Assembly: GCA_021825585.1 (NCBI GenBank)
Contig: JAKAGT010000016.1
Location: forward strand, 33,617-97,616
Reading direction: 5' to 3'
Length of the DNA stretch: 64,000 nucleotides
DNA from: Bacteroidota bacterium
GTDB lineage: Bacteria > Bacteroidota > Ignavibacteria > Kryptoniales > JAKASW01
Position numbers and translations under genes: made by a program. Below the pieces are notes generated by a model. That model was not told the origin of the DNA. It searched no databases and worked only from the letters and a program-made list of their open reading frames with translations. How positions within the stretch are numbered: the first letter of the stretch is position 1; each line of letters starts with the position of its first letter. Positions 12,391 to 58,698 of the stretch are shown here, piece after piece.

Positions 12391-12465
12391 TGGGCGATAG
12401 AGGATTCGAACCTCTGACCTCTACAATGTCAATGTAGCGCTCTAAACCAACTGAGCTAATCGCCC
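12391..12465 (-). tRNA. tRNA-Val (anticodon GAC)
   Basis: Minus strand GGGCGAT TA GCTC AGTTGGTTTA GAGC G CTACA TTGACAT TGTAG AGGTC AGAGG TTCGAAT CCTCT ATCGCCC A. Full cloverleaf; CCA not encoded. Confidence 0.9.
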
Positions 12466-12592: not shown

Positions 12593-12679
12593 TGCCGAGG
12601 GCGGGACTTGAACCCGCACGGCCCGTTTGGGGCCAAAGGATTTTAAGTCCTTCGCGTCTACCAGTTCCGCCACCCCGGC
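12593..12679 (-). tRNA. tRNA-Leu (anticodon UAA)
   Basis: 87 nt: GCCGGGG...GAAGGA CTTAAAA TCCTT, long variable arm, GCGGGTTCAAGTCCCGC, CCTCGGC A. Type II tRNA. Confidence 0.9.
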
Positions 12680-38056: not shown

Positions 38057-41000
38057 ATGTCCTGTGCGAAGCGTCTCCTATCCATTTCAATCCTTATCGC
38101 CGCATCATGTGAAATTTTATTGCCTGCCCGTTCCTTCGGGCAGGTAAATTCATCATTAGAGTTTCAAGCATCCGATTCAGTTGTCGTCCGCATCTTCAGC
38201 GCGGATACACTCGTACATCTCCCCGACGAATTCGTAGTCCAGAACTCCGACCGGGTGGTTTGCGATTCCGTGGAATTGAAGCGGGGCCCGGACTACAGGA
38301 TCAACTACACTGCGGGCACGCTGAGGTTCGAACCAGGTGGGCCATTCTTCCGGAACCGCAGAGACTCGGTTTATGTCGTAAGTCTCTATTATGCCAGTTT
38401 CCCGTTTACGATGCCGACCGAATTTACCAATCACATAGTAATCGCGAAATATGATACTTCGTTCAAGAAGAAGGTAATGATGATCGAGCAGAGTGCTCCG
38501 ATCACGCCTGCAGAACTCTTCGGCAGCAACATCCAGAAAAGCGGGAGCATCGTGCGCGGTTTCACCATCGGATCCAACCAGGACCTGACACTCAACTCCG
38601 GTTTCCGGATGCAGCTTTCGGGACAGCTGACGAAGGACGTCCAGGTGACCGCGGCGCTGACGGACGAGTCGAGCCCGATCCAGCCCGAAGGAAATACGAG
38701 AACGCTCCAGGAGTTCGACAAGGTGTTCGTCACCATAAAATCCCCGCATATCATCGGCACACTCGGCGATTTCGACCTGACCGAAACCGGGACGGAATTC
38801 GGAGTCATAAACCGCAGGCTTCAGGGTGGAATGGGAACGGCGAACTATGGTCAGACATCCGTTATGATCAGCGGCGCCGTGAGCAGGGGGAAATTCCGAA
38901 CCCAGCAGATTGCGCCGATAGACGGCAGCCAGGGGCCTTACCAGCTTGTCGGGGACGATGGAAGTCCTAACATAATTGTGGTTGCGGGCACCGAGCATGT
39001 TTACCTCGACGGCGTTAAGATGGTTCGCGGCGAAACGAACGACTATGTTATAGACTATTCGAATGCTCAGATCACCTTCACTCCCAAACACCTCATTACT
39101 AACCTGAGCCGGATCTTCGTGGATTTCGAATATTCCGACGGGCAATTCCAGCGGACGTTTGCCGGGGGCGCGGCGAAGACGAAGGTGGCGAACAATAAGA
39201 TTGAGGTGGGTGTCTCTTACTTCCAGACGGGCGACGATCCTAACAGCTCACTCGGCGTGACGCTTGCGGATTCGGACAAGGCTCTCCTTGCAAAGGCCGG
39301 CAATAACAGGCTCGCTGCTTCGAGGAGCGGTGTGACCTACGTCGGACGCGACTCAATCACCGGGATCGGTAAGGGACAGTACCGTCTCGATTCGCTGATT
39401 GTCAACGGCAAGCCGTACTACATTTATAGGTTCGTACAGCCGACCGACACGAGTAACCTTGTAAATGCCGTCTACAACGTCGCCTTCTCAGAGGTAGGCA
39501 GCGGGGAGGGTGACTACCAGTCGGTCGGATTCGGTCAGTATAACTTTGTCGGTATTAATCAGGGATCCTACGCGCCGATCGTTGTCCTCCCGATGCCGCA
39601 GTTCCACCAGCTCGCGGATGTAAATACGAAATACCGGTTCAGCCGGGACGGTTCGGCGACACTCGAGTATGCAGCAAGCAGTTTCAACGCCAATACCCTC
39701 TCCTCGCTTCCCGGTGTCTCATCCAGCGGATACGCGGCCAAGTTCGGATTTGACTACTCTCCCAAGAACCTGAAGATCGGCGACATGGATGTCGGGGCTT
39801 TGAAGTTTGCGGAGATGACGAGGTACGAGAATGCCAATTTCGATCCGATGGACAGGGTCAACGACGTCGAGTTCAACAGGGAATGGGGAATAGACACACT
39901 TGTTGCCGCAGATGAGCTCCTGAACCAGGCACACCTGGATTTTACGCCGGCAATCAAGGAGGCCCGCCTGACGATAGGCGGAGATGTAGGGAGAATCACA
40001 CGAGGCTCCGGCTTCAGCTCCGGAAGATACTCCGGTGCAATTTCCTTCGGGGGAAATCCCGGAGCGAAAGGCGAGCCTGGCTGGATACCTTCCATCAATT
40101 ATCAGGCGACGCTCGTGGACAGCAGGGACAACGAGTTCTCAAATGCCGGGAGCTGGTTCAGGCAGAACGGCACGATCCAGTTTGCGGTATGGAAACTAAC
40201 CCCGGGGTTTCGATTCGAATCGGAAGACCGGCGTCTGGCTACGACCGGTACAGACTCCCTTTGGGCGAACTCGTATCGCTACCTCGAATACGGGCCGACA
40301 CTGGCCGTCGCGCAATTTTATAACGTCGACATCTCGGCACAGGTTTATGTGAGAAATGAGAGCGGCATCATCAACGGAGAACTCGTTCCATCATCCAATT
40401 CACTTACCGAACAGCTCACGATGCGGCTGAACCAGATCAGCAGCTTCTCTTCCAACCTGACATTAACGTACCGGAAGAAATCATACAGCGACAGTTTCAA
40501 GTCGCTCGGAAATTCGGACAATGAAGCGTTTCTGTCGAAGTGGGACGCCAACTACGCTCCGCTGAATCGCGGTCTCCAGGCAAACGTGTTTTATCAGGTC
40601 AATACCGAGCGTGCTGCAAGGCTCGAACAAATTTTCTGGAAGGTGCAGCCGGGCCAGGGTCAATACATCTGGATCGACGGAAATCATAACGGCCAGGTCG
40701 ACATTACGAATCCGCTCGATTTCCAGCAGGTCAACTTCAACGGCGACTACATTTTGCTGACAAGGCCGACCACGACGCTCTATCCGGTAATCGACCTGAA
40801 GACGAATTTCAGGATTGCCGTCACCCCGGAGAAGTTCATGGAGAAGAGCGGCGGGATAGTCAATGCAGTTCTGCGCTCCCTTTCATCGGTCACCTTCTGG
40901 CAAATCGCAGAGAATAACCAGACGACCAACGTCAGCAACATATATCTCCTTCATCTTTCGAAGTTTCTCAACGACAGCCTGACTATCAGCGGCAACCAGG

Positions 41001-41635
41001 TGCTCCAGCAGGATTTTTACGTCCTGCAGAACAACCGCGACTTTTCTCTCCGCCTGAGATTCCTGCAGAACAAGTCGCTGAACCAGTATTCGATAGCAAC
41101 GGAGCGCGGTTATACGCGCGAGCAGAGCATGAGGCTCAGGGCCAAGCTGTCCGATTTATTCTATGAGGAACTCGATCTGTCTTTGAACGACAACGATGTG
41201 TTCACCACATACACCGACCGTGCACACCAGATCAGCGGAAACAGTATCGCCTCGGAGCTCTCTTACCGTCCCAACATGAACGTGGAGTCTTCGTTCAAGA
41301 TAGAGATTTCGAAAGCGGTGGATGCTTCCCGGGCCGGCCTTACAAATTCCATGAATACGGAAGTGCTGAGTGTCGCTTATTCGATTCTGACGAGAGGCCG
41401 CGTCACGCTTCAGCTTGAACGGGACGAGATCTTGATTTCGAACGAGGAACCGAATGTCTATTTGCCGTTTGAATTGACACAGGGTTTTCTGCCCGGTCAG
41501 ACATACATTTGGCAGCTGGGTTTCGATTACAGGATAAACTCTTTCATACAGGCTAACGCAAGTTACAACGGGAGAAGCCAGGCAGGTGGGCCGCCAATCA
41601 ATACGATGACTGCGGAAGTAAGGGCATTCTTCTAG
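38057..41635 (+). CDS. large predicted outer-membrane beta-barrel protein, unknown function (possibly distantly SprA-like)
   Basis: 1192 aa with a signal peptide (LLSISILIAASCEILLPARSFGQ), alternating beta-strand-like composition rich in Y/G/N/S, and a C-terminal ...AEVRAFF typical of OMP termini. Repeated DY.I.Y..G.I.F motifs. No family was assigned with confidence. Confidence 0.8.
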   Translation: MSCAKRLLSISILIAASCEILLPARSFGQVNSSLEFQASDSVVVRIFSADTLVHLPDEFVVQNSDRVVCDSVELKRGPDYRINYTAGTLRFEPGGPFFRNRRDSVYVVSLYYASFPFTMPTEFTNHIVIAKYDTSFKKKVMMIEQSAPITPAELFGSNIQKSGSIVRGFTIGSNQDLTLNSGFRMQLSGQLTKDVQVTAALTDESSPIQPEGNTRTLQEFDKVFVTIKSPHIIGTLGDFDLTETGTEFGVINRRLQGGMGTANYGQTSVMISGAVSRGKFRTQQIAPIDGSQGPYQLVGDDGSPNIIVVAGTEHVYLDGVKMVRGETNDYVIDYSNAQITFTPKHLITNLSRIFVDFEYSDGQFQRTFAGGAAKTKVANNKIEVGVSYFQTGDDPNSSLGVTLADSDKALLAKAGNNRLAASRSGVTYVGRDSITGIGKGQYRLDSLIVNGKPYYIYRFVQPTDTSNLVNAVYNVAFSEVGSGEGDYQSVGFGQYNFVGINQGSYAPIVVLPMPQFHQLADVNTKYRFSRDGSATLEYAASSFNANTLSSLPGVSSSGYAAKFGFDYSPKNLKIGDMDVGALKFAEMTRYENANFDPMDRVNDVEFNREWGIDTLVAADELLNQAHLDFTPAIKEARLTIGGDVGRITRGSGFSSGRYSGAISFGGNPGAKGEPGWIPSINYQATLVDSRDNEFSNAGSWFRQNGTIQFAVWKLTPGFRFESEDRRLATTGTDSLWANSYRYLEYGPTLAVAQFYNVDISAQVYVRNESGIINGELVPSSNSLTEQLTMRLNQISSFSSNLTLTYRKKSYSDSFKSLGNSDNEAFLSKWDANYAPLNRGLQANVFYQVNTERAARLEQIFWKVQPGQGQYIWIDGNHNGQVDITNPLDFQQVNFNGDYILLTRPTTTLYPVIDLKTNFRIAVTPEKFMEKSGGIVNAVLRSLSSVTFWQIAENNQTTNVSNIYLLHLSKFLNDSLTISGNQVLQQDFYVLQNNRDFSLRLRFLQNKSLNQYSIATERGYTREQSMRLRAKLSDLFYEELDLSLNDNDVFTTYTDRAHQISGNSIASELSYRPNMNVESSFKIEISKAVDASRAGLTNSMNTEVLSVAYSILTRGRVTLQLERDEILISNEEPNVYLPFELTQGFLPGQTYIWQLGFDYRINSFIQANASYNGRSQAGGPPINTMTAEVRAFF

Positions 41636-43216: not shown

Positions 43217-44500
43217 TCAGGTCGGGTTCTGCGGGAGCGCTTTCAATGCCCAGTGGATCTTCGCCAACAGTTCCTCGGCCAGGTACGGCTTTGGCATGAA
43301 GTCTATCGCCCCGACCTCATAGGCCTGGGCCTTCACTTCCGGCTGAACGTAACCGCTGGCGGAAATTACCCTCACACGCGGATTTAGAATCATGAGCTTC
43401 GCAAGAACTTCACTCCCGCTCATTTTGGGAAGTCCCATGTCGAGGAGCACGAGGTCGATTCTGCTCAGATGTTCCATGTAGATGCGAAGGCCCTCTGACC
43501 CATCCGATGCCAGCAAGACTTTGTACCCGCTTTCCTCGAGAATTGTTTTCAGAAAATCCCTTAGAGGCTCTTCGTCCTCAATGGCAAGAATCACTTCGCC
43601 GGCGCCTCCTGGTGCCTCGGCTGTTTTATCTTCTTCCGACAACACCCCTGTTGTCTGAGGAAGGACCGGGAAATAAAGGGAAAATGCTGTACCCGTACCG
43701 ACTCTGCTTTCAACGCCCACGAATCCATTGTGGGCTTTCATAATCCAATCGACGACCGACAGCCCAAGGCCGGTGCCGTGCCCGTCCCTCTTTGTCGTGA
43801 AGAACGGCTCAAAAATATGCCCCAGCGCCTCCTTCTTTATTCCTGAACCTGAATCCGACACTTCAATTTGTACGTATCGGTCCGCTTCCGCTCCCCGAAA
43901 ACGAGCGTCGATGACCCCCCGTCCGACGCACTTAGCGGTGATTTCGATTGTTCCCGCGTCCGGCATTGCATCGCGGGCGTTCAAGCAAAGATTGAGCAGG
44001 GCTTGGTGAATCCGATTCGAGTCAGCCCGGATTACAGGGATGTCGGAATCGATCTGAATGCTGAAGCGGATCTTCTCGGGAAAGATCTCCTTCAGCAGCC
44101 CCGTGAGTTCTTCAATTACCTCGCCTATTTTGACACGCTCCGTTACGACCTCGACTTTCCGCGTGAACGTGAGAAGTTGCCTGGCAGTCTGAGCCCCGCG
44201 GTCAGTTGCCTTCTTCACGGCGTCGAAGCTCTTTGCAAACCGCTCCGGGTCTTCCCTCCACCTTTCCATGAGTGAGACGTGCCCGGAGATAACGTTCAGT
44301 ATGTTGTTGAAGTCGTGGGCGATTCCACCGACGAGCGTGCCCAGCGTCTCCAGCCTTTGCGACTGAAGGACATGGTCTTCCCAGCGTCGCGGACCTGTTT
44401 CATTTGTCGCGAGTCTCCCTTTTGAGAGGGCAAGGTCCGGGCGATCGAACTTCCCGATCTGATTTTCTTCCATGAATGTCTTCTTTCCTTTTCGGCACAT
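43217..44500 (-). CDS. hybrid sensor histidine kinase/response regulator lacking a recognisable sensor domain
   Basis: 427 aa with HisKA (GGIAHDFNNIL), HATPase_c (GTGLGLS) and a C-terminal REC (LLDMGLPKMSG). Only about 60 aa precede the H-box, and an in-frame stop lies 21 nt upstream of the first ATG. Confidence 0.85.
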   Translation of the reverse strand: MCRKGKKTFMEENQIGKFDRPDLALSKGRLATNETGPRRWEDHVLQSQRLETLGTLVGGIAHDFNNILNVISGHVSLMERWREDPERFAKSFDAVKKATDRGAQTARQLLTFTRKVEVVTERVKIGEVIEELTGLLKEIFPEKIRFSIQIDSDIPVIRADSNRIHQALLNLCLNARDAMPDAGTIEITAKCVGRGVIDARFRGAEADRYVQIEVSDSGSGIKKEALGHIFEPFFTTKRDGHGTGLGLSVVDWIMKAHNGFVGVESRVGTGTAFSLYFPVLPQTTGVLSEEDKTAEAPGGAGEVILAIEDEEPLRDFLKTILEESGYKVLLASDGSEGLRIYMEHLSRIDLVLLDMGLPKMSGSEVLAKLMILNPRVRVISASGYVQPEVKAQAYEVGAIDFMPKPYLAEELLAKIHWALKALPQNPT

Positions 44501-44990
44501 ACATCCTGCCTTCTGCGTTATTCAATCGCTTCCTATCACCGACAGGCTCCATCAGTCCTTGCGGGTACTTAACGCCGCAGGCGACCTGGATGCCTTTGTG
44601 TCCTCTTGTCCATATCCGATACCGACACTGACGGCAAAGCAGCCTTCGTCGTGATCGCACTCAAAGAGCAGTACTTCAATGACCTTATCATGACTTCGGC
44701 GGGATCCGAAGCCGCGAATCCGACGATGACTCAGCCCTCGTGCTGACGATGAAGCTATGGAGCTGATATTGAAATGTAGGTGCCACAAAAACCGGCCCCG
44801 CTCTGCCAGAGCTGTCCCGGCCGCCGGATCAAGCCGGCGTACGAGAAAAACCAGCCTCGTCAAAATGCAAACTCCTCTTTCCCGGAACGTTGAGTGTGAC
44901 TGCACTCGCCTGGGCAGGCTCTGGCTCGCGTTCTTGTAAACCAACAAGTTTGAACTCGCAACCGATATTACAGATTGCTCGTTCGGTGAT

Positions 44991-45098
44991 TCAGTCTGGT
45001 ACGCAAAGCAATGCGTTGCAGCCGAGGCAGTTTGTTCCTGGTTGCTGCTCGGTTTCGGGTTGCTGTACCTGTACCTTAGGGGCTACTACTACCTTCAT
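44991..45098 (-). CDS. candidate RiPP precursor peptide (35 aa, 3 Cys), unannotated sORF
   Basis: ATG 45098 is preceded by AAAGGAGGTG with a 6-nt spacer, 74 nt downstream of the rSAM/SPASM stop on the same strand. Translation: MKVVVAPKVQVQQPETEQQPGTNCLGCNALLCVPD, stop TGA 44993..44991. It is below the ORF-track length cut-off. Confidence 0.5.
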   Translation of the reverse strand: MKVVVAPKVQVQQPETEQQPGTNCLGCNALLCVPD

Positions 45099-45172
45099 CT
45101 GGTTCACCTCCTTTCCTTTTCTTTTATGTTTAGCATCCAATTAGTATCTCAAAATTGCCTTAAGGAGAGAGT

Positions 45173-46504
45173 CTAGTTTGTCCCCTCTTGTTGGGCGTTT
45201 TCTACGAACATCTTGATATCCTCTTTGTAAGGAGGGCAGACGGGATGGTTGGGAGTTCCATTTTCCCTCAATCTTAAAACTTCATTTTTGGGACAATGAG
45301 CGGAATTACATATCGGCAATACGGCACAACGGCGGCACTGTGGATACTTTTCGATGCTCGATTCGACCCAGAGGCTGAAGTTCTTTACGTCGAGATGGAT
45401 TGTCCCTTCAGCAGTAAGATGGCCCACCAGGTTTTCCGGCATCTCAAAAGCCGATGTGCACTTGTAAATCGAACCGTCTGGCCCTATGACGAGCGAATGT
45501 GGGTCTGCGGCGTAGCACATTCCCAGGGCAGGGTTCAAAAAGAGGTCGCTGTCATAAAGGTACAACCCGACTTCGCCGCATATGTCTACTATTTGCTTTC
45601 TAAGACTTCTGGTCTCGAAATTGGTAAGCAAATCAAACTGGCTCTTTCCCCACGTGGGTCTCACATAAAATCGCGCCCTCTTGTCGTCGCCGACGATATC
45701 CTTGACGATGCGGGCAAACTCCGGAACGGTCTTAAGGTTATCCCTGTCGACATTCATCCTCACGACGTACATGACTTCCGGATGGTCGGATTTTGCGATG
45801 TATCGCAGGTTGGAGATAACCTGGTCGAATGTCGGTCCCCCGGATTCGAGGATCCGGCGCTGATTGTGAAATTCTCTCGGACCGTCAATTGTAATCTGGT
45901 AGCGGAGTAATCGCCAATCCTTGACTGCCTCTTCGAACACCTCCGGCGTCAGGAGATAGCCGTTTGTTGTAATCGTCGCATTAAATGCGGCGTTATATTT
46001 GTCTGCCTCTCTGACTGCATGTTTTGAGATGTTTCTGATAACGTCAATCCCGAGAAGCGGTTCACCCCCGAACCATTCGATGGAAAATCCATTTACCCGT
46101 CCCATATTATTGGAGATGTAATCCTTCAATGCCTTCTGGATTTCCTCACTCATCTTCGGCTTCTGAAAGCTCTCGTAGCAGTACACGCACCGGAAATTAC
46201 ACTCTTCCGTCGGCATCACTATCAGGCTTACTCTGTCGGTGCTCTTCTGCCTCGCGTTGAACGAAGCGATGTAGTCGGGAATCTCGTTTGTATCTTCAGG
46301 GATTATGAACATTGCGTCTTTCAGTACCGGGAACCACTCATGATCGCTGAGTTGGAATGTCTCATGCCTCCAGGCCTCCTCAAATCCCGGAAATAAAGGA
46401 TCCGTGTTGGACAGCTCGACAATAGCCCCGGTCCTTGCGTTGAAGAGACGTGCGCCGTCTTCGGTCTTTACCGTTACATTGTAACGGCTCTTCTTATAGT
46501 TCAT
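45173..46504 (-). CDS. radical SAM/SPASM domain peptide-maturase-like enzyme
   Basis: CNFRCVYC (Cx3Cx2C) about 95 aa from the N-terminus. C-terminal SPASM pattern: CYAADPHSLVIGPDGSIYKC ... CRRCAVLPICNSAHC ... HPVC. The likely start is ATG 46504 (GGAGAG 5 nt upstream); the ORF track uses GTG 46519. Confidence 0.9.
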   Translation of the reverse strand: MNYKKSRYNVTVKTEDGARLFNARTGAIVELSNTDPLFPGFEEAWRHETFQLSDHEWFPVLKDAMFIIPEDTNEIPDYIASFNARQKSTDRVSLIVMPTEECNFRCVYCYESFQKPKMSEEIQKALKDYISNNMGRVNGFSIEWFGGEPLLGIDVIRNISKHAVREADKYNAAFNATITTNGYLLTPEVFEEAVKDWRLLRYQITIDGPREFHNQRRILESGGPTFDQVISNLRYIAKSDHPEVMYVVRMNVDRDNLKTVPEFARIVKDIVGDDKRARFYVRPTWGKSQFDLLTNFETRSLRKQIVDICGEVGLYLYDSDLFLNPALGMCYAADPHSLVIGPDGSIYKCTSAFEMPENLVGHLTAEGTIHLDVKNFSLWVESSIEKYPQCRRCAVLPICNSAHCPKNEVLRLRENGTPNHPVCPPYKEDIKMFVENAQQEGTN

Positions 46505-46537
46505 GGTCACTCTCCACACTTGTTAGTCACCTTGAAT

Positions 46538-46556
46538 AGTACTAATACCGTGCCGG
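46538..46556 (-). promoter_or_regulatory. sigma-54-like -24/-12 element upstream of the rSAM gene
   Basis: Minus strand cCGGCAC-GGTAT-TAGTac has correct GGCAC-N5 spacing but a weak -12 (TAGT versus TTGC). It lies 36 nt upstream of the ATG and downstream of an activator gene and palindromes. Confidence 0.35.
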
Positions 46557-46597: not shown

Positions 46598-46625
46598 TGG
46601 ATTTTCCAGAATTCTGGAAAATCCA
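46598..46625. promoter_or_regulatory. 28-bp perfect palindrome, candidate enhancer (UAS) for a sigma-54 activator
   Basis: TGGATTTTCCAGAATTCTGGAAAATCCA equals its own reverse complement. It sits about 60 bp upstream of the -24-like element. Confidence 0.5.
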
Positions 46626-46637
46626 GGCCTTTGCTTT

Positions 46638-46656
46638 CCAGATTTCCGGAATCTGG
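46638..46656. promoter_or_regulatory. second related inverted repeat
   Basis: CCAGATTTCCGGAATCTGG (CCAGA...TCTGG arms around a TTCCGGAA core) shares the TTCCAGA half-site with the 28-bp palindrome. A further TTCCAGG lies at 46658..46664. Confidence 0.4.
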
Positions 46657-46841: not shown

Positions 46842-47960
46842 CTACTCATCAACCGAAGCCGGCGATTTCAGCTTGGATATTTTTCCGGCGACCAATTCGT
46901 ATACAGTACTCTTTGAAGTCCCCAGTGACTTGGCCACCGACTTGTAGTTACCGGAACAAACAGTCAATGCGGCCTCAACGAGATTCTCCTTGAAGCATCT
47001 TTCTTTTTCCCTGAGGTTGAGATTCTCACCGCGTAATATTCCGCAGTTCATGGCGTCAAACTTCCCCTCCGGCAAATGACTGACGTCCACCAGGTCTTCG
47101 TTCTCGTCGAGCACCGCTATTGTGTATTCAACGACGTTTTTCAATTCCCTTATGTTGCCTGGCCAGCTGTAGCAGGAGAATATCTCCATCACTTCCGGGG
47201 AGACCACGACTCCTTCACGGCCATTGGCATCAAGGAAATATCTGACAAGGGCGGGAATTTCATCTATCCGTTCTCGCAGCGGCGGGATGGTCAGTTCACA
47301 GGCGTGGATTCTATGGTACAAATCTACTCTGAAGGTTTTGTTCTTGACCATTTGAGCGATATCCTCGCCGGTTGCGCCCACCAGTCTGAAATTGACTTTC
47401 CTGGGTGCGACGGAGCCGACCGGATAAAACTCCTGATATTCCAGCGCTCGCAGCAATTTCTTCTGGACCGCCAGGCTCATTTCCGCCACCTCGTCGAGGA
47501 AGAGAGTACCGCCGTCTGCGATTTCAAAGAAGCCCGTCTTATCGCCGCGCGCATCTGTGAAGGCTCCCTTCACGTATCCGAAGAGCTCACTTTCCAGCAG
47601 GTTATCGGGAATCGCCGCGCAGTTTATTGCCACGAAGCTTCCCGTCGAGTTTCTCGGCGAATTCTCATGTACATACCTTGCCAGGATCTCCTTCCCACTT
47701 CCGGTTTCGCCCGTAATCAGCATTGGTAAGTCAGATTTGGAAAGCTTTCTGGCCCTGTCATAAATCCTCTTCATGGCGTCATTTCGCATCACCGGGAGAG
47801 CTAGAGCAATGATGGCGGCGTTCGACGCCAGCCAATGCGCGCCATGAGAGAATGTCGGAATCAAATGACTCGCCGCACTGCAGAGAATGCCTGACAGGAC
47901 ACTCGCCTTTAGGGCGAAAACAATTGTTATGGCTGACATATCCATGATGTTCCTTTTCAT
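46842..47960 (-). CDS. sigma-54-dependent transcriptional activator without receiver domain
   Basis: 372 aa with an AAA+ sigma-54 interaction domain (ITGETGSGKE, ESELFGYVKGAFTDA, GTLFLDEV) and a C-terminal Fis-type HTH. The N-terminal ~55 aa are hydrophobic instead of REC/GAF/PAS. The ATGA overlap with the permease stop indicates co-transcription. Confidence 0.9.
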   Translation of the reverse strand: MKRNIMDMSAITIVFALKASVLSGILCSAASHLIPTFSHGAHWLASNAAIIALALPVMRNDAMKRIYDRARKLSKSDLPMLITGETGSGKEILARYVHENSPRNSTGSFVAINCAAIPDNLLESELFGYVKGAFTDARGDKTGFFEIADGGTLFLDEVAEMSLAVQKKLLRALEYQEFYPVGSVAPRKVNFRLVGATGEDIAQMVKNKTFRVDLYHRIHACELTIPPLRERIDEIPALVRYFLDANGREGVVVSPEVMEIFSCYSWPGNIRELKNVVEYTIAVLDENEDLVDVSHLPEGKFDAMNCGILRGENLNLREKERCFKENLVEAALTVCSGNYKSVAKSLGTSKSTVYELVAGKISKLKSPASVDE

Positions 47961-50377
47961 TCATATCTAAGGGCATTCACCGGGTTTGAAACACCTGCCT
48001 TAATCGCCTGAAAGCTCAATGTGAGCATGGCGGTCAAAAAGACAATCAAACCCGAAATGATGAACACCCATACGTTAATGGTGATCTTGTATTCGAATTT
48101 CTGAAGCCACTTGTTCATGAAGAAGTATGCCGTCGGCCATGCAACGGCTCCCGCAATTGCAACGAGCTTGATCGACTCCTTGGACAACATCAGAACTATG
48201 CTTAACACCGAAGCGCCAAGAACTTTTCTAACACCTATTTCCTTTATCCGTTGTTCGCTCGTGTATAGAGTGAGCCCGAAGAGACCCAGGCAAGCCACCA
48301 GGAGTGCCACCGAAGAGAAGAGTGCAAGGAGGTGCTCGTTCTTGACCTCATTGCCATACTGACTGTCCAGGTAGCTGCCAAGGAAGCCATAATCGAAGGG
48401 CTGGCGCGGCATCAGGTTATTCCAGGTCTTCGACACGAAATCGACGGTCGACCCTATGTCCTTAGGAGCGACTCTTACAACAAGGTACTGGCATTTGTCA
48501 GGTCTCAGCCACATGACGAGAGGATCGATCTTGTTTTGCAGAGAGAAGTAATTGAAGTCTCTCACAACGCCAACCACGGAGAAAATCTGTCCGTTTCCCA
48601 ATTGAATCTTTTTCCCCACAGGACTGCTCCAGCCAAGCGTTCTTCTCATTGTCTCGTTGATAATCACGGACGATGAGTCTGATGGGAATTGCATAGAGAA
48701 ATCCCTTCCTTCGACGATCTTCATGCCCATTGTCCTGATATAGCCGTAGTCAATGTAGCTCTCCCTCACTATCAAACGGGACTGACCGTTCGTCTCAGGC
48801 ACTAACACGGTTCCTTGTGTGGAAGCGGAACCGGTCAACTCGCCAGCCGACACGGCTAGAACTTTAGGGTTTGTAAGGAGTCTTTCACTAATCAACGGGA
48901 TCTTGCTTCTGGAATCTGCATTTCGCAGCGGAATGTATACTATGTTTTTCTTGTCGAACCCTAATGGCTTGCTGTAGACATAATTCATCTGATCGACCAC
49001 GATGCTTGTCCCGGTAACGAGCCCCATGGCTATGCTGAATTGCAGCATTATCAACGCTTTCCTGAGGATTATCCCGCGCTTGCTGGACGAAAATCTTCCC
49101 CTGAGCAAATCGACCGGGCGAAACGAGGAGAGATAAAACGCGGGATAGATTCCTGCAATGAAGCCCACAACGACCGCTATCAGGGCAAGCATTAGGAGGA
49201 ACGGCCACTGATTATTGTAAGAGACGATTATCCGGTCGTCCATCATTGAGTTAAACGAGGGAAGGAGAGCCTCGACAATGGGAAGGGAAATGAGGAAGCC
49301 ACTGAAGGAAAGCAAAATAGATTCTCCGATGAACTGATAAATAAGGTGCGAGTGGAACGATCCTAGCAGTTTGCGGATTCCCACTTCTCGAGTCCTTATC
49401 CCAGAGCGGGCTGTTGTAAGATTGATGAAGTTTATACACGCAAGGACAATCACGAACAACGCTATCATGATGAAAAGCCTGACGTGCTCGATGTTCCCCT
49501 TGTCATAATTAACCTGATAAAGTATGCGGCCTGAATGAAGGTGGATGCTTATGAGAGGCTGCAAATACATCTTCAAACCGTTCCAGACGTTCTGTGGTAG
49601 ATTGGCTTTGAGAAACGCCGGGAGTTCCCTTTGAACCACGCCGGAAGACCGGCTGTCCTTCAGGAGAACATAAGTGACCACATCGTTGGTTGCCCATCCC
49701 TTGAAGAGATCCAGATGACTTTCGAGTGCACCCAGTGAAGCAATCATATGAAAATGCAAATGAGAGTTTCGCGGAAAATCCTTAACTACTCCAGTGACCT
49801 GAAATGCCTTCTGGGAAAGATCCGCGTCGATATCTATGAATTTCCCCAGAGGATCGATGTTCCCGAAGTATTTTCTCGCCGTCGACTGATCGATCACTAC
49901 ACTGTAAGGTCCATTGAACGCCGCGGAGGCGCTCCCTTCGACGAAGTGGAACGTGAAAATGTCGAAGATGCTCGAATCGGCGAAGGTCAGCCCGTCTTCG
50001 TAAAACCTCCTTTCTCCAAAGTGACACAGGACGGTTGGCCATGGAACAAATCTGGCTGCGTCCTCCACTTCCGGGAATTCTTTCTTCAAGGCCGGTGCCA
50101 GCTCAGGCATCGTGATGGCCACCTGCTGTACGCGAGCGCCCGGCGGGTTCTGAATCTCCACGACCCGGTATATCCGATCGGCCTTCTTATTGAACGTGTC
50201 GTAGTTGAACTCGTTAAGAACAAACAGCATTATAAGCGTGAAGAGCGTGAAGCCTATTGTGAGGCCTGCAATGTTTATGAAGGAGTAAACCTTGGAGCTT
50301 GAGATACTTCTGAGAACGGTTTTAACGTAGCTCCAGAACACCCCGTGTCCCTTCCGTAATATTCTCGTTGGCCACAT
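47957..50377 (-). CDS. MacB/FtsX-type ABC transporter permease (duplicated FtsX)
   Basis: 806 aa with the typical N-terminus (...YSFINIAGLTIGF), two FtsX 4-TM modules and two large extracytoplasmic domains. The start may be GTG 50341 rather than ATG 50377. Confidence 0.9.
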   Translation of the reverse strand: MWPTRILRKGHGVFWSYVKTVLRSISSSKVYSFINIAGLTIGFTLFTLIMLFVLNEFNYDTFNKKADRIYRVVEIQNPPGARVQQVAITMPELAPALKKEFPEVEDAARFVPWPTVLCHFGERRFYEDGLTFADSSIFDIFTFHFVEGSASAAFNGPYSVVIDQSTARKYFGNIDPLGKFIDIDADLSQKAFQVTGVVKDFPRNSHLHFHMIASLGALESHLDLFKGWATNDVVTYVLLKDSRSSGVVQRELPAFLKANLPQNVWNGLKMYLQPLISIHLHSGRILYQVNYDKGNIEHVRLFIMIALFVIVLACINFINLTTARSGIRTREVGIRKLLGSFHSHLIYQFIGESILLSFSGFLISLPIVEALLPSFNSMMDDRIIVSYNNQWPFLLMLALIAVVVGFIAGIYPAFYLSSFRPVDLLRGRFSSSKRGIILRKALIMLQFSIAMGLVTGTSIVVDQMNYVYSKPLGFDKKNIVYIPLRNADSRSKIPLISERLLTNPKVLAVSAGELTGSASTQGTVLVPETNGQSRLIVRESYIDYGYIRTMGMKIVEGRDFSMQFPSDSSSVIINETMRRTLGWSSPVGKKIQLGNGQIFSVVGVVRDFNYFSLQNKIDPLVMWLRPDKCQYLVVRVAPKDIGSTVDFVSKTWNNLMPRQPFDYGFLGSYLDSQYGNEVKNEHLLALFSSVALLVACLGLFGLTLYTSEQRIKEIGVRKVLGASVLSIVLMLSKESIKLVAIAGAVAWPTAYFFMNKWLQKFEYKITINVWVFIISGLIVFLTAMLTLSFQAIKAGVSNPVNALRYE

Positions 50378-51026
50378 GACCGTCGAACAGCTGAACTATC
50401 CTGTTTGCCCAGCTCGCGTATTCGGTCGAGTGTGTGACCATAACGACGGTAGCACCGCCCTCATTTAATCGTGCAAGCAGAGTCATCACTTCATCCCCGT
50501 TTCTGGAGTCGAGATTCCCGGTAGGTTCATCCGCGAGTATCAACTTCTGTTTACCCACTATTGCTCTGGCGACGGCCGCTCGTTGCTGCTGTCCTCCCGA
50601 CAACTGCTTCGGAAAGTGATTGCGCCTCGGGGTGAGACGCATCTTCTCCATAATGTCCATCACCATTTCTTTCCGCTCGGGAGAACCAATTCCCATATAT
50701 ATAAGCGGCAGCTCAATATTCTCGTAGACCGTCAATTCGTTTATCAGGTTGAAATTCTGAAACACGAAGCCGATGTATTTTCTTCGGAGCGCGGTACGCT
50801 GTTTCTCTGAGAACCTGGACACCTCCTGTCCGAGGAAGTAATGTTCCCCCTCAGTAGGGCTATCGAGAAGGCCAAGTATTGTAAGCAAAGTTGTCTTGCC
50901 GGATCCGGACGGCCCCATAATTGCAACAAACTCACCGGGATCGATACGCAAGTTCGCATTGGCGACTGCAACTGTCTCGACCTGATCGGTCCTGTAAACT
51001 TTCTTGAGATTACTGATTCGAATCAT
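50322..51026 (-). CDS. ABC transporter ATP-binding protein (MacB/LolD-like)
   Basis: 234 aa with Walker A GPSGSGKTT, signature LSGGQQQR and Walker B LILADEPTGNLD. Confidence 0.9.
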   Translation of the reverse strand: MIRISNLKKVYRTDQVETVAVANANLRIDPGEFVAIMGPSGSGKTTLLTILGLLDSPTEGEHYFLGQEVSRFSEKQRTALRRKYIGFVFQNFNLINELTVYENIELPLIYMGIGSPERKEMVMDIMEKMRLTPRRNHFPKQLSGGQQQRAAVARAIVGKQKLILADEPTGNLDSRNGDEVMTLLARLNEGGATVVMVTHSTEYASWANRIVQLFDGHVANENITEGTRGVLELR

Positions 51027-51064
51027 TTTCCGGGTCCTTTTTGGCTAAATAGCCCTTGAAAAAG

Positions 51065-51082
51065 CGTCAAAAATTGTGCCTT
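51065..51082 (-). promoter_or_regulatory. sigma-54-like -24/-12 element upstream of the ABC operon
   Basis: Minus strand aAGGCAC-AATTT-TTGAcg has correct spacing and a -12 of TTGA versus TTGC. It lies 40 nt upstream of the ATPase ATG, in the divergent region shared with the NtrC-type regulator gene. Confidence 0.4.
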
Positions 51083-51276
51083 ATTTTATGACACCAGTAG
51101 CATCCAGATACACGCACGCCGACTTAAAGTGTTCGCTTTCGATACACCGAGTGTGCGGATATGATACAGAGTCCGACTTAATCTGTCAGGAAAAAAGGAA
51201 ATGCAGCGGCGCGACCTTACTATGCCATGAGACGATCGGGGTTCGCATTATCAAGAAGGGATTATTAGATTTGTCC

Positions 51277-52659
51277 ATGACTTCAAATCCTGAAAAACAC
51301 GGCAGCGCTCTGATCGTCGATGACGATGCTGCTATCCTCACAGCGTTTAGTCTCCTTCTCAAGCCGCACCTTAGGCTGGTGGAAACCGAAAGAGATCCTC
51401 ATAATATAGAAAAACGGCTCAAAACAATATCACACGATGTAATTTTCCTGGATATGAACTTCGCCAAGGGATCGACGACGGGCGAAGAAGGATTCCTATG
51501 GCTCAACAGGATTCTCAAAATTGATCCCACGGCCATCGTGATTTTGATCACCGCCTACGGCGACATAGAAACAGCGGTGAGGGCCATCAAGGAAGGTGCG
51601 ACGGACTTCGTCGTGAAGCCGTGGCAAAACGAAAAGATCCTGGCGACTCTCTCGTCGGCCTTGAAGTTGAGGGAGTCTCAGGTAGAACTCGCGGCATCGC
51701 GTAATCGCGAGAAAGTACTCAGTGCCGATCTCGATCAGCCGTTCCATGAAATAATCGGCAAGTCAACAGCAATGCTTCAAATATTTGAAACGATACGGAA
51801 AGTAGCGGGAACGGAAGCGAATATTCTGATTCTGGGTGAAAACGGTACGGGTAAGGAGCTGGTGGCGCGTGCGATACATCGTTTCTCAATGAGAGCCGAA
51901 AGTTCTTTTATTGCCGTCGACATGGGGGCAATAAGCGAGACTTTGTTTGAAAGCGAACTCTTCGGCCATGAAAAGGGGGCCTTCACCGGCGCCTCAAATG
52001 ATCGAATGGGGAGATTTGAAATCGCATCCAGGGGTACGCTTTTCCTCGATGAGATAGGAAATCTCCCGTTCTCACTTCAGGCCAAATTGCTCGCCGTAGT
52101 CGAGAGACGCGAGATCACGAGGGTCGGTTCCGATAGGCCGCGTCCGATCGATATTAGACTCATAACAGCCACGAACATGCCGATACATGAAATGGTGGCG
52201 CAGAAGAAGTTCAGAGAGGATTTATTATACAGGATAAACACCGTCGAGATAAATCTTCCTCCTCTGAGTCATCGGGTGGAAGATATCCCGCTGCTGGTCG
52301 AACATTTCGTACAACTTTACGGCAGGAAGTACCAGAAGCCGGGCATCCGTGTGTCTCCAGAAAGTATGAGGGTCTTGAGCGAATACCAGTGGCCCGGCAA
52401 TGTCAGGGAGCTGCAGCACGTCATAGAACGAGCGGTGATATTGAGCGAATCCGACTCCCTGCATCCCGAGGAGATGATTCTCAAACCGGCTGCAGCTGCG
52501 CACCCGGATAATGCGGCTGATCATTCGCTCGACGAAATCGAGAAGAAACACGTTGAGATGATGATCAAGAAACACGATGGAAACGTTACCGAAGCGGCAA
52601 AGGAACTCGGCCTGACACGGACTGCCCTCTACAGGAGAATCAAGAAATACGGAATATGA
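51277..52659 (+). CDS. NtrC-family sigma-54-dependent response regulator
   Basis: REC (LIVDDDAAIL...FLDMNF), AAA+ (GENGTGKE, ESELFGHEKGAFTGA) and Fis HTH domains. The conserved protein begins at MTSNPEKHGSALIVDDD. The ORF-track start 51076 would overlap the divergent promoter region. Confidence 0.9.
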   Translation: MTSNPEKHGSALIVDDDAAILTAFSLLLKPHLRLVETERDPHNIEKRLKTISHDVIFLDMNFAKGSTTGEEGFLWLNRILKIDPTAIVILITAYGDIETAVRAIKEGATDFVVKPWQNEKILATLSSALKLRESQVELAASRNREKVLSADLDQPFHEIIGKSTAMLQIFETIRKVAGTEANILILGENGTGKELVARAIHRFSMRAESSFIAVDMGAISETLFESELFGHEKGAFTGASNDRMGRFEIASRGTLFLDEIGNLPFSLQAKLLAVVERREITRVGSDRPRPIDIRLITATNMPIHEMVAQKKFREDLLYRINTVEINLPPLSHRVEDIPLLVEHFVQLYGRKYQKPGIRVSPESMRVLSEYQWPGNVRELQHVIERAVILSESDSLHPEEMILKPAAAAHPDNAADHSLDEIEKKHVEMMIKKHDGNVTEAAKELGLTRTALYRRIKKYGI

Positions 52660-54311: not shown

Positions 54312-56306
54312 TCATTTTAAAAGGAGCATCTTACGTGTGGCGGCGTATCTATCGGTCGTGATCCTGTAGAAGTAAACTCCGCTTGCCAGTTCGTCACCGT
54401 TGAAGATTACTCTGTAACTTCCCGCTTTCTGATTCCCCTCGACCAGCGTTTCCACCTGCCTCCCGAGAATGTCGTACACTTTGAGTGTTACAAAACTGCT
54501 CGAAGGGAGCTGGTAGCTGATGACGGTCGTTGGATTGAATGGATTTGGGTAGTTCTGGCTAAGCATAAAGGCAAGCGGCACGACGTGAGGGGGGAGGATC
54601 GAATCCACCGTGGCACTGTCGCCGTAAACCTGGATCTCAGAAATAGAATAGGGCCCGTTACCCGGCTGTGCAAACTGGAACCGGAGATATCTGCCTACAC
54701 CGTGAAGATTTCCCAACGTTTGGACACCATCCGACGCGACCGAGTTCAGCGTCACTGTCGTAAGAGGGATCCAGTTCGTCAGATCGCTCAATATTTCGAC
54801 TGAATCCTGTCTTGCAAAGGTCTGGCTTGCCCAGTAAATGACGATCCTGCCGATCGAGTCCACCGTTCCCAGGTCCATCTGCACCCACTGAGACGGCGCT
54901 GAACCTGCCTGCCAACGTGTCGATATGTTGCCGTCGGTAATGTTCATGGGGCTGCTGGTCGGGTCGGCAACGGTATCGTTTGAGGAAGCGGTAACGGCAG
55001 CGTCCAGCGACTTGTTGACTATGTTTACGCCGACATCTTGCGGATAGTCGTCGTGCATCAAACTGAGCGACTGCAGGATTCGCGATTGTTCCGTACCTCC
55101 CGAACCGTAGGACCAATCCAGGGCGCCTGCGTAACCGTTAGAGTAAATATCCGGGTAAATGCTGGACCACGTCAGGTTCGAAAAAAGAGAGCTCGAGAGA
55201 AGATTCGAGAACATGAACTCAGCAATCACGAGAGGTTTTGTCAGTTTCCAGGTGGAGTAGGGGACGAGGAACGGGGCGACAGCGGCTCCTTCCCATGTGT
55301 AATAGTGAACGGAGTAGAAATCAAGCGTTCCCAGGGGATCGCCTCCAGCGGCTATAAGTCGGCTATCGGTGTAGTAATTGAAATTCGTGGTCGCGGCAAC
55401 CCTGTCCATGAATTCCTGCATCTGCTGGACGGTGAAGCTAGTCCTGTGAGTTGCGTTGAAATCATCGGTTATGCGCTGCATCTGGTCAGGTGAAATGCCA
55501 TCGAGTTTTTTCAGCCACGCTCGTTTGGCCGACAAGAGGGGAGTCACATCCGTTATGCTGAGGAAACCTACAGCTCCGGTTGTGACCAGTGCGCCCGGGT
55601 CAGCTCTGTGTATGGCTCCAGCCATTAGATTAACGCTTCTCTGAATATCCGACATCTGAATATGGTCATATCCTCCCCAGGCAATCGGCGGGGCAACACC
55701 TTCCATTTCGTTGAAGATCTCCCAGGCGACAATTGCAGGATTGTCTTTCACGGAGTCCACCATCGGGACAAGCGCATTTCGGATAAACGCCATAGTATAC
55801 GACGTGTCGGTAAGCAATTTATAATTGTCGTTCAACTGGGTGGACGTCATGTTCTCCGACGGCGGCTCGCTCATCATGTCGAACGACCATAGACAGAGTA
55901 TCAAACCTATATTGTTCTGCTGCGCCAGATTCAGGATCTTCCTAAGATCCTGAATTGCGTACGGGCCGGGACCTGTAACGTATCCGTTTGAGCCGAAGGC
56001 GGGAGTATTCACTCCGTTCGTGAACAACCAGAGCCGCATCACGTTGCCGCCGTTCTGATGCACAGTCTGAAAAATGGTCTGGAAACGTGAGAAGTTTACG
56101 CTGTTAGGAGAACTGGCGCTTCGGGGTCCGAGGTCCCCTGCGAAACTGACCCATGCTACGTTTGCGCCGCTGAGGAAAACATATTTGTTCGAGAATGGAA
56201 TCCTGGATTGGGCAAAGGCGGATGTTTGAATCGACAGTACCGAAATCAGTAATGCACCCATCAGGATCTTCGTTCGTCGGAATATGTCGACATGGTTCTT
56301 CTTCAT
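54312..56306 (-). CDS. secreted GH5-like glycoside hydrolase with F5/8 type C (discoidin) CBM and T9SS C-terminal sorting domain
   Basis: 664 aa with a signal peptide, a (beta/alpha)8 GH5-like region (WEIFNEMEG) and a discoidin-like module (NITDGNISTRWQAG...WVQMDLG). C-terminal NYPNPFNPTTVISYQLP...GVYFYRI...KMLLLK matches the Por/T9SS CTD. Confidence 0.85.
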   Translation of the reverse strand: MKKNHVDIFRRTKILMGALLISVLSIQTSAFAQSRIPFSNKYVFLSGANVAWVSFAGDLGPRSASSPNSVNFSRFQTIFQTVHQNGGNVMRLWLFTNGVNTPAFGSNGYVTGPGPYAIQDLRKILNLAQQNNIGLILCLWSFDMMSEPPSENMTSTQLNDNYKLLTDTSYTMAFIRNALVPMVDSVKDNPAIVAWEIFNEMEGVAPPIAWGGYDHIQMSDIQRSVNLMAGAIHRADPGALVTTGAVGFLSITDVTPLLSAKRAWLKKLDGISPDQMQRITDDFNATHRTSFTVQQMQEFMDRVAATTNFNYYTDSRLIAAGGDPLGTLDFYSVHYYTWEGAAVAPFLVPYSTWKLTKPLVIAEFMFSNLLSSSLFSNLTWSSIYPDIYSNGYAGALDWSYGSGGTEQSRILQSLSLMHDDYPQDVGVNIVNKSLDAAVTASSNDTVADPTSSPMNITDGNISTRWQAGSAPSQWVQMDLGTVDSIGRIVIYWASQTFARQDSVEILSDLTNWIPLTTVTLNSVASDGVQTLGNLHGVGRYLRFQFAQPGNGPYSISEIQVYGDSATVDSILPPHVVPLAFMLSQNYPNPFNPTTVISYQLPSSSFVTLKVYDILGRQVETLVEGNQKAGSYRVIFNGDELASGVYFYRITTDRYAATRKMLLLK

Positions 56307-57603: not shown

Positions 57604-58698
57604 ATGAAAACGATTCCCCAGAAATTCGATTACAGGATAAAAACCATCGATCCCCATATCGTGGCTCTCTTGGCTGCCATTGACGAAGTGAAGGGACAAT
57701 TCAAGGCGGGGCTTCGCATGACTCCGCAGGCGATCACCAGTTTGAAAAAATCAGTGCTCATCACGTCAGCCGGCGCCTCTACCCGTATTGAAGGTGCGAA
57801 GCTCAATGACAAGCAAGTCGAGAAGGTGATGCGCGGCCTTGCTGTTTCCAAATTCGCTGACCGCGATTCGCAGGAAGTCCAGGGTTACCTTGAGACGTTG
57901 CAGAACGTGTTCGACAATTATGACGCCTTGCCGCTCCGAGAAAGCTTGATCCTGTCACTTCATAAGGAACTCCTCAAGTATTCGACTAAGGACGAATTAC
58001 AACGCGGCAAATACAAGATGAAAGAAAATACGGTCGGCGTATTGGGCCCGGACGGCAAGGTGGTTCGAATAATGTTCGAGACAACCAAGGCGTATTTAAC
58101 ACCGAAGGAAATGCAGGAACTCGTGGAGTGGACCGCCGAAGCATTGCAGGAGAATCGGTTCCATCCGCTCCTCACCATTGCCAACTTCATCGTTGAGTTC
58201 CTAAAGATACATCCGTTCGAGGATGGCAACGGGCGTCTTTCGCGCGTATTCACGAATCTCTTGCTGCTTCGCAGCGGTTACTCATTTGTCCAATACGTGT
58301 CCCATGAGCAGCTGATTGAAAAAAGAAAAGATGAGTATTACATCGCACTCCGCAAGTCACAGGAAACATTCTCCGCCAAAGGTGGATCCGCCTCAAGCGG
58401 AAAAACCGACCATGTAACCATTACGCCATGGCTCAATTTCTTTTTGTCTGTGATCCATGAACAGGCTACCAAGGCTGTCACGTTTCTTGAGGAAGAAAAG
58501 TTCGAGGATATCCTTTCGCCAAAGCAACACGAGGTTTGGATGTATATCTCAAGCGTCGGAGAGGCAAGTCCGAGCGACATCGTGAAGGCAACTCACGTTG
58601 TCATGCCGACGGTACGTCAAGCTTTGGACAGACTCATTGAGCTTGGTAAAGTGAAACGAATCGGCCGTGGTCGCGGAACGAGGTACGTAAAGTTGTAA
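57604..58698 (+). CDS. fic: Fic family protein (AMPylase-type) with C-terminal wHTH
   Basis: 364 aa with the Fic motif HPFEDGNGRLSR, an N-terminal inhibitory-helix-like motif STRIEG and a C-terminal wHTH (VMPTVRQALDRLIELGKV). Confidence 0.9.
   Translation: MKTIPQKFDYRIKTIDPHIVALLAAIDEVKGQFKAGLRMTPQAITSLKKSVLITSAGASTRIEGAKLNDKQVEKVMRGLAVSKFADRDSQEVQGYLETLQNVFDNYDALPLRESLILSLHKELLKYSTKDELQRGKYKMKENTVGVLGPDGKVVRIMFETTKAYLTPKEMQELVEWTAEALQENRFHPLLTIANFIVEFLKIHPFEDGNGRLSRVFTNLLLLRSGYSFVQYVSHEQLIEKRKDEYYIALRKSQETFSAKGGSASSGKTDHVTITPWLNFFLSVIHEQATKAVTFLEEEKFEDILSPKQHEVWMYISSVGEASPSDIVKATHVVMPTVRQALDRLIELGKVKRIGRGRGTRYVKL

Follow-up and report, generated by a model that had tools for sequence, protein, structure and literature searches.

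A radical SAM/SPASM enzyme and a conserved three-cysteine peptide as a probable sigma-54-controlled RiPP operon of Candidatus Kryptoniota

Introduction

CteB (CteB/SCIFF, thermocellin; PDB 5WGG, 5WHY) is an enzyme with three clusters that forms thioethers, and its N-terminal domain resembles the recognition element (RRE) of peptides that are ribosomally synthesised and modified after translation (RiPPs). It is also the nearest structure, by sequence and by fold, to a radical S-adenosylmethionine (SAM)/SPASM enzyme encoded on the minus strand of the DNA analysed here, a 64,000-nt stretch of a Bacteroidota bacterium assembly (GCA_021825585.1, contig JAKAGT010000016.1, positions 33,617 to 97,616; hereafter the window), in which a 35-codon, cysteine-rich open reading frame (ORF) follows the enzyme gene. 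The two genes are very likely an uncharacterised RiPP system whose general kind is well known, and we consider it probable that they form a sigma-54-controlled operon of Candidatus Kryptoniota that makes Cys thioethers, probably to conserved Asn/Asp residues.

The likeness to CteB has its bounds, as identity to the enzyme is only about 20%, the score on the SCIFF maturase model TIGR03974 is 91.3 bits against a cut-off of 425, and the SCIFF precursor has six Cys in about 45 residues, whereas the peptide here has three in 35 and is encoded downstream of the enzyme. The best curated model for the enzyme is TIGR04463 ('rSAM_vs_C_rich'), aligned over residues 66–445, with which it shares the radical SAM-SPASM layout behind a putative RRE and whose partners, judged from the model name alone, are very short Cys-rich peptides; scoring 201.8 bits where the cut-off is 525, the enzyme falls outside this family, and a literature search returned no paper on the TIGR04463 family. 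Anaerobic sulfatase-maturating enzymes (anSME) have the radical SAM core and SPASM domain in common with the enzyme, and differ from it in score (TIGR03942, 92.2 bits against 349), in the N-terminal domain, which they lack, and in context, there being no sulfatase gene near the enzyme.

A further characterised relative is PapB of the freyrasin-type ranthipeptides (NF047865, 118.1 bits against a cut-off of 340), which links Cys to Asp or Glu (PMC9413430). The segment C24-x3-N28 of the window peptide, with its Asn/Asp interchange, recalls the PapB-type Cys-X3-Asp beta-thioether unit as presented there (PMC9413430), but it is one possible C-x3-N/D unit and not a repeat, and most sequences have Asn at the acceptor position. 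NxxcB and QmpB, radical SAM/SPASM enzymes of streptococcal RiPPs (RaS-RiPPs), join Cys sulfur to Asn, NxxcB at the beta carbon with Asp, Ala and Gln tolerated as acceptor, and QmpB at the alpha carbon (PMC9389541, PMC11851443). These two are likened to the present pair by proposed crosslink, spacing and regulation: the acceptance of Asp by NxxcB matches the Asn-to-Asp substitutions in window-type peptides, whereas the spacing is N-x2-C for NxxcB and N-x3-C here, and shp/rgg quorum sensing in Firmicutes contrasts with predicted sigma-54 control in Kryptoniota. The pair is like the thioether RiPP systems (CteB/SCIFF, PapB, NxxcB) in the way it is predicted to work, and is a member of no curated family tested.

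Results

The precursor peptide gene

The small ORF (44991–45098, minus strand, 35 codons and stop) encodes the three-Cys product MKVVVAPKVQVQQPETEQQPGTNCLGCNALLCVPD, and is separated from the enzyme stop codon by 74 nt on the same strand. It is preceded by the Shine-Dalgarno sequence AAAGGAGGTG (45105–45114, minus) with a 6-nt spacer, AACCAG, to the ATG. The putative core reads N23-C24-L-G-C27-N28-A-L-L-C32-VPD and the leader MKVVVAPKV..., and the CxxCxxxxC core motif has a single occurrence within the window. An earlier first-pass annotation, made from the letters of the window, had reported this ORF with its size, Cys number, distance and ribosome-binding site, and all of these statements were verified.

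DNA around relatives of the enzyme was recovered from genomes, metagenomes and assemblies, and comprised 12 distinct loci of Candidatus Kryptoniota type with downstream DNA (the window, L013, L001, L004, L002, L014, L016, L093, L095, L097, L100 and L101); in L003, L015 and L018 the contigs stop within the enzyme gene, so that there was no downstream DNA to score. A homologous small ORF was present downstream of the orthologous enzyme, in the same position and on the same strand, at 12/12 loci (enzymes 63–94% identical), and no locus with downstream DNA was without a peptide, as two divergent orthologues, in addition to the 12 canonical ones, also adjoin related Cys/Asn-rich peptides. The first-pass annotation had proposed that its candidate would fail if the ORF were neither kept beside orthologous enzymes nor translated; the CxxCxxxxC peptide was found beside every one of them that has downstream DNA, and it evolves as a protein.

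Residues M1, K2, P7, K8, V9, C24, C27 and C32 are invariant across the 12 loci, and P20, N23 and N28 nearly so, with Asp as the sole substitute at N23 and N28 (in L016 and L013). The conserved layout is a leader M-K-h-h-V-x-P-K-V, in keeping with the leader-like N-terminal half noted earlier, then a variable linker (residues 10–19) whose length differences are always whole codons, and a core [N/D]-C-x-x-C-[N/D]-x-x-h-C. The sequence GGAGGTGA stands 5–7 nt ahead of the start codon in 12/12 loci, is kept in the 45–51% identity orthologues as well, and precedes ATG in 10 loci and, in one locus each, TTG and GTG. For the 20 codons that could be aligned, the pooled ratio of non-synonymous to synonymous variation (pN/pS) was 0.25 in frame, and the two other frames gave 0.92 and 1.31; 12, 8 and 20 columns varied at codon positions 1, 2 and 3, respectively.

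These data bear directly on the notion that the small ORF is a chance, untranslated frame in a conserved non-coding region. The notion has in its favour that public annotation gives the gene no name (gene callers have predicted it in some assemblies, and no source names its homologues) and that the protein collection searched does not contain the window peptide in identical form; it is nevertheless barely credible, as all 20 third codon positions vary while the Cys, Pro and Lys codons stay, pN/pS is low in the one frame and about 1 in the others, start codons interchange between ATG, TTG and GTG behind a kept Shine-Dalgarno sequence, and the linker shifts by whole codons only. Because of this residue conservation, the whole-codon linker changes, the maintained ribosome-binding site and start, and the pN/pS ratio, the small ORF is taken as a translated gene; judged by comparison of the loci, it is a real gene, well beyond chance, and under purifying selection.

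A phmmer search of the peptide against 1.84 billion representative proteins returned only four short relatives and one further match, P0128 (864 aa, 12 matching stretches), which was rejected as a tandem-repeat artefact. The peptide had no match among NCBIfam models (at E≤10) or Pfam models, which, together with its three Cys and the low score of the enzyme on the SCIFF maturase model, bears out the earlier remark that it is not SCIFF-like.

The radical SAM/SPASM enzyme

The maturase gene (45173–46504, minus, 443 aa) lies in an ORF that extends to a GTG at 46519. That GTG was rejected as the start, because the orthologues align from the ATG at 46504 (MNYKK...), which has its own GGAG and is common to all of them. 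In the numbering of the GTG-started ORF, the motif CNFRCVYC occupies residues 107–114, and C107, C111 and C114 (CX3CX2C) are invariant in an alignment of 116 homologues, as are seven SPASM Cys in the pattern C335-x13-G-x4-C354, C395-x2-C398-x5-C404-x4-C409, C428, which fits the general form CX9-15GX4C ... CX2CX5CX3-4C ... C. No eighth Cys lies just ahead of the seven-Cys motif, as is also the case in CteB, which, after published work on CteB and anSME, we take to mean that auxiliary cluster I has a coordination position free for the thiolate of a substrate. Pfam Radical_SAM (PF04055) matched at 59.8 bits (cut-off 29.5) and Fer4_12 was also matched, while the Pfam SPASM model stayed sub-threshold (14.7 against 21.5 bits).

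The best NCBIfam matches of the enzyme are all RiPP or peptide maturases, although none reaches its cut-off: behind TIGR04463 came Clo7bot (167 bits, cut-off 600), CefB (154, 600), FlmE/OhkG (144, 500), the geopeptide maturase (134, 400) and PapB, and lower still anSME, the SCIFF maturase and QhpD (65 bits). By sequence, the solved structure nearest to the enzyme was CteB (5WGG; E 1.8e-24). An AlphaFold (AF2) model built from the 116 sequences had a predicted local distance difference test (pLDDT) score of 94.1, and placed ahead of the TIM-barrel core an N-terminal domain (residues 8–92, pLDDT >90) in which helices come after three to four beta strands (beta-beta-beta-alpha-alpha-alpha). With this model Foldseek returned CteB first (E 2e-20, about 450 aligned columns, N-terminal domain included), and then anSME, ChlB, TigE and SuiB, with EpeE also among the fold neighbours. 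Residues 1–97 gave no match to any sequence model, PqqD/RRE models included, even at E≤10. Its sequence and these comparisons mark the enzyme as a radical SAM/SPASM maturase with three clusters, whose N-terminal domain is a putative peptide-binding, RRE-like one.

The first-pass annotation had described the CX3CX2C motif with about 95 residues ahead of it, as is the case, and had grouped the enzyme with peptide maturases and not with anSME, which agrees both with the profile scores (202–134 bits for the five best families against 92 for anSME) and with CteB as the nearest structure. Its claim of a full SPASM Cys pattern stood as regards the seven invariant Cys and not as regards the Pfam domain model; likewise, of the profile searches it had proposed, the one for PF04055 was positive, and those for a PF13186-type SPASM model at threshold and for RRE sequence models were negative, while the predicted fold of the N-terminal domain aligned with that of CteB. 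The roughly 10 kb to either side of the enzyme held no gene for a sulfatase or quinoprotein, in accordance with the earlier remark that the window has no such substrate gene.

This last result matters for another explanation, in which the enzyme acts on a sulfatase-like or quinoprotein-type protein or on a cofactor, and the small ORF is an unrelated conserved micro-protein or a regulatory upstream ORF of the kinase gene that follows it. Weak anSME and QhpD matches and the presence of anSME structures among the fold matches would suit such a role. We find it very improbable, since the anSME score lies not only far under its cut-off but also under the scores of six peptide-maturase models, the N-terminal domain of about 95 residues that anSME lacks aligns with CteB, the pairing of enzyme and small ORF is kept in the 45–51% orthologues despite different neighbours, and the small ORF and the kinase gene are about 490 nt apart, with a terminator-like hairpin in between.

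Divergent orthologues and the wider enzyme family

About 20 close relatives of the enzyme fall at 45–94% identity, after which identity drops to about 36%, and all named close relatives come from Candidatus Kryptoniota or 'Bacteroidetes' metagenome-assembled genomes. In the 51% orthologue L099, the peptide encoded behind GGAGGTGA is MKIVKSSGITSKDPVTNESACGKGCPCNDTICPNIPRCSQ, and in L017/L102 it is MKIIKSCTLKPPEPPNAGCASGCNANCPSGCNTNCPCGISC, likewise behind GGAGGTGA. Short Cys/Asn-rich peptides adjoin both the 45–51% orthologues and the 30–37% homologues, e.g. ...GCNANCPSGCNTNC..., ...CPCNDTIC..., ...NNCNC and ...GCNINC....

The 30–37% homologues belong to Tumebacillus, Bacillus, Brevibacillus and many metagenomic contigs. 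The peptides beside them end in NNCNC, GCNINC, NENCDCC, GCNFATGC and similar sequences, and many start with MKxhVKP, like the Kryptoniota leader. Near these homologues there were 45 Cys-rich small ORFs on the same strand as the enzyme gene, compared with 15 in opposite-strand controls; C-terminal Asn content was 13% against 6% in the controls, and Cys adjoining Asn 32% against 13%. Ten of these peptides were compared with NCBIfam, with no match at E≤10, and homologues with NNCNC-type peptides scored 191–225 bits on TIGR04463, below the cut-off; these enzymes, too, fell short of every curated cut-off. On account of these divergent and distant peptides and of enzymes falling short of every curated cut-off, the window pair is placed in a distinct small clade inside a large uncurated radical SAM/SPASM branch whose predicted substrates share a C-N...C theme.

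Promoters, enhancer-binding protein and terminator

A sigma-54-type promoter, GGCACGGTATTAG (46542–46554, minus; -24 GG, -12 G), is predicted about 38 nt ahead of the enzyme ATG. Further upstream are two palindromes, the proximal TTCCAGAATTCTGGAA (46604–46619) and the distal TTCCAGATTTCCGGAA (46636–46651), each a candidate enhancer (upstream activating sequence) for the adjacent bacterial enhancer-binding protein (bEBP). Ten orthologous upstream regions with a mean identity of 44% contain three invariant blocks, i.e. the two TTCC-N8-GGAA palindromes, with TTCC/GGAA unchanged in all 10 loci, and GGCA-N5-TT-N-G. The promoter element reads GGCACGATATTGGCA in most orthologues. It takes the perfect form TGGCACGAGGATTGCA (TGGCACG-N4-TTGCA) in L099, whereas no such sigma-54 promoter was seen in the 45% orthologue L102.

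The bEBP gene (46842–47960, minus) is conserved directly upstream of the enzyme gene across the clade, and its product has an AAA+ domain (PF00158, 212 bits) with a GAFTDA loop and a C-terminal helix-turn-helix. Receiver, GAF and PAS domains are all absent from the protein, whose orthologues measure 328–367 aa; the N-terminal 57 annotated residues look hydrophobic and may precede the real start, which is probably internal. PspF-like activators of this kind are normally controlled in trans. At the same position L099 has a GAF-containing bEBP, and because this different activator accompanies a perfect TGGCACGAGGATTGCA, sigma-54 control appears to persist in this orthologue, beyond the syntenic Kryptoniota clade. 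With GGCA..TT.G conserved in 10 loci, two palindromes and a bEBP whose loop reads GAFTDA, where the general pattern is a -24 GG/-12 GC promoter, upstream activator sites and a GAFTGA loop, the features of a sigma-54-dependent operon are present and its function as such is predicted.

A second sigma-54-like promoter, AGGCACAATTTTTGA (51067–51081, minus), is located ahead of the ABC transporter, permease and bEBP genes, and its pattern GGCA[CT]-N5-TTTG recurs in five loci. The element sits in the divergent intergenic region (51027–51290) between the ABC ATPase gene and an NtrC-type regulator gene; further upstream in that region, the conserved block GTGTATCA.ATCCGCACAC...AAAA.CGAACA is a candidate response-regulator binding site. 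The bEBP and the MacB-type ABC exporter thus appear to stand behind the second promoter, and the arrangement beside an NtrC-type two-component pair suggests a possible two-tier cascade.

Downstream of the peptide gene is a terminator-like hairpin with a U-tract (44786–44821, minus), inside a larger conserved stem (about 44790–44900). This long-range stem of about 15 bp, GCCAGAG.CTGTCCCG ... CGGGACAG.CTCTGGC on the minus strand, encloses about 100 nt right after the peptide gene, is kept in nine loci (window, L001, L002, L004, L013, L095, L097, L100 and L101) with a few compensatory changes, and, for the window and the loci nearest to it, ends in the terminator-like hairpin. A structured 3′ untranslated region or a stabilising element is conceivable, as is a small RNA not yet recognised; neither the locus nor the stem matched an Rfam family.

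Proposed maturation and crosslink chemistry

In the proposed mechanism, the receiver-less bEBP would drive the sigma-54 promoter from the two TTCC-N8-GGAA palindromes, and transcription of the maturase-peptide operon would start there. The RRE-like domain would bind the leader, after the manner of CteB, PapB and NxxcB, and a core Cys thiolate would ligate the open site of auxiliary cluster I. A 5′-deoxyadenosyl radical would then take a hydrogen from the acceptor residue, and the resulting carbon radical would capture sulfur to give a thioether, with a loss of 2 Da per link and up to three links. Candidate pairings are N23-x3-C27, N28-x3-C32 or C24-x3-N28, at the alpha or beta carbon, and a compact C-terminal peptide with several rings would result. 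Linkage of Cys sulfur to the alpha carbon would make it a sactipeptide, linkage to a beta or gamma carbon a ranthipeptide. The acceptors would most probably be N23 and N28 (Asn/Asp). A Cys-to-Asn/Asp thioether is the best-supported guess, since all three Cys are invariant, Asp is the sole substitute for Asn and no aromatic residue is conserved.

Several points weigh against this reading. The thioether chemistry is inferred by analogy, as are, from comparison of loci, the transcription, translation and modification of the peptide. Chemistry is not transferable by homology here, and similarly related radical SAM/SPASM enzymes give C-C, C-O or cyclopropyl products or epimers; TigE and SuiB, which have other chemistries, are among the fold matches, and all curated maturase families were missed by a wide margin. 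The sub-threshold SPASM score and the negative search with RRE sequence models belong here too. The Asn-Cys spacing departs from that of NxxcB, and with three Cys to two Asn/Asp at least one Cys would have no evident partner. In the window promoter the -12 element is degenerate (TTAGTA instead of TTGCA), and the locus showed no leader peptidase.

Part of this evidence would fit a genuine RiPP pair of another chemistry, such as classical sactionine links to other residues, C-C or C-O crosslinks, epimers, or free Cys serving as a metal or redox CxxC in a metallophore-like or disulfide peptide. The enzyme stands outside all characterised families, its fold neighbours include TigE (cyclopropylglycine), SuiB (Lys-Trp) and the epimerase EpeE, CxxC is a common metal/redox motif, and one Cys lacks an Asn/Asp partner. 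On the other side, the absence of a conserved aromatic residue from the core disfavours cyclophane chemistry, the combination of three invariant Cys with a seven-Cys SPASM domain without an eighth ligand resembles thioether synthases such as CteB, Asn gives way to Asp only, and the co-enrichment of Cys and Asn extends to the distant homologues. A different chemistry is therefore judged unlikely, and Cys-to-Asn/Asp thioethers remain the preferred reading.

Neighbouring genes

The gene order in the clade is ABC ATPase, duplicated MacB/FtsX permease, receiver-less bEBP, maturase, peptide and hybrid kinase/receiver, and a divergently transcribed histidine kinase and NtrC-type sigma-54 response regulator precede the ABC ATPase. 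In the window the ABC transporter ATPase (50322–51026, minus) matches PF00005, with DarD as its best NCBIfam model (269 bits, cut-off 375). The duplicated MacB/FtsX-type permease (ADOP-like; 47957–50377, minus), a candidate exporter, has two copies each of Pfam MacB_PCD and FtsX, scores 280 bits on TIGR03434, below the cut-off, and is syntenic in the clade. Matches to DarD/DarB, the darobactin exporter, were not used as evidence of peptide export, as they are sub-cut-off and reflect general MacB/LolD similarity. The sensor-less hybrid histidine kinase/receiver (43217–44500, minus; Pfam HisKA, HATPase_c and Response_reg) is always next downstream in the clade. A sigma-54-like site ahead of its gene, TGGCACCTACATTTC at 44785–44771, was discarded, as the pattern was unmatched in the other orthologues tested, the closest of which (L001) reads TGACAC. 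The link of the ABC transporter and the kinases to the peptide system rests on synteny among related genomes and may represent inherited gene order.

At least six loci (L001, at about 7735–8110, L004, L016, L095, L097 and L101) encode, in the interval from the precursor gene to that of the hybrid kinase, a second conserved small protein of about 75–90 aa, starting with MYSI or MYP and carrying the motif [FY]C[KRVM]Y.D.I.G.IEFEI; it is frameshifted in L002, absent from 44501–44990 of the window, and was also not seen in L093 or L100. The window, from which this protein is missing, diverges from L001 right after GGTTTTTGTGRCACCTACA. The protein may have an accessory role in the system.

A 1192-aa protein without a Pfam domain (38057–41635, plus) has a counterpart of 1160–1173 aa that keeps its relative position, beside a BON-domain protein and triosephosphate isomerase, on every long orthologous contig. 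A glycoside hydrolase family 5 (GH5) cellulase-like protein (54312–56306, minus) with F5/8 type C domains and a C-terminal sorting domain of the type IX secretion system fits a bacterium of the Fibrobacteres-Chlorobi-Bacteroidetes (FCB) group, and near its gene is that of a Fic/DOC family protein (57604–58698, plus). Two tRNA genes (12391–12465 and 12593–12679, minus) were the only Rfam matches in the window.

Discussion

The first-pass annotation had called the locus undescribed, and this has held: no curated enzyme model was matched at its cut-off, neither NCBIfam nor Pfam recognised the peptide, and its homologues are unnamed in every source. No description of the enzyme-peptide pair was found in the literature, including that on Kryptonia RiPPs, on sigma-54 with SPASM, on OhkG/FlmE, CefB and Clo7bot or on Tumebacillus. 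Thousands of uncharacterised radical SAM RiPP clusters are already known to specialists, to whom the pair will come as no surprise; it is a solid and easily testable lead.

The peptide could be a signal, an antimicrobial or a metal ligand. A bolder proposal, which we hold to be quite doubtful, is that the peptide is a lineage-wide, chromosomally fixed signal of the uncultured Kryptoniota, made by an uncurated radical SAM/SPASM clade with a new Cys-Asn/Asp thioether topology (recurring C-N-x(n)-C) within a two-tier sigma-54 cascade. The order of that cascade would be from the NtrC-type two-component pair to the ABC exporter and the receiver-less bEBP, and from there to the maturase and precursor, which would amount to an autoinducer-like circuit of a type undescribed for RiPPs. 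By extension, the thousands of 30–37% homologues with NNCNC- or GCNxNC-type peptides would then be one large unrecognised RiPP class.

For radical SAM RiPPs, the locus adds a precursor-enzyme pair, validated by comparison of loci, with a core motif and a leader that are clearly conserved in the precursor, from a phylum that to our knowledge has no cultured member. It exposes a larger set of related enzymes, uncovered by curated models, each beside a short Cys/Asn-rich peptide. Consisting of 35 residues and one enzyme, the pair would be an easy target for heterologous expression, bearing on whether Cys-Asn thioethers are widespread, and the conserved sigma-54 promoter and enhancer architecture offers a testable handle on peptide regulation outside Firmicutes.

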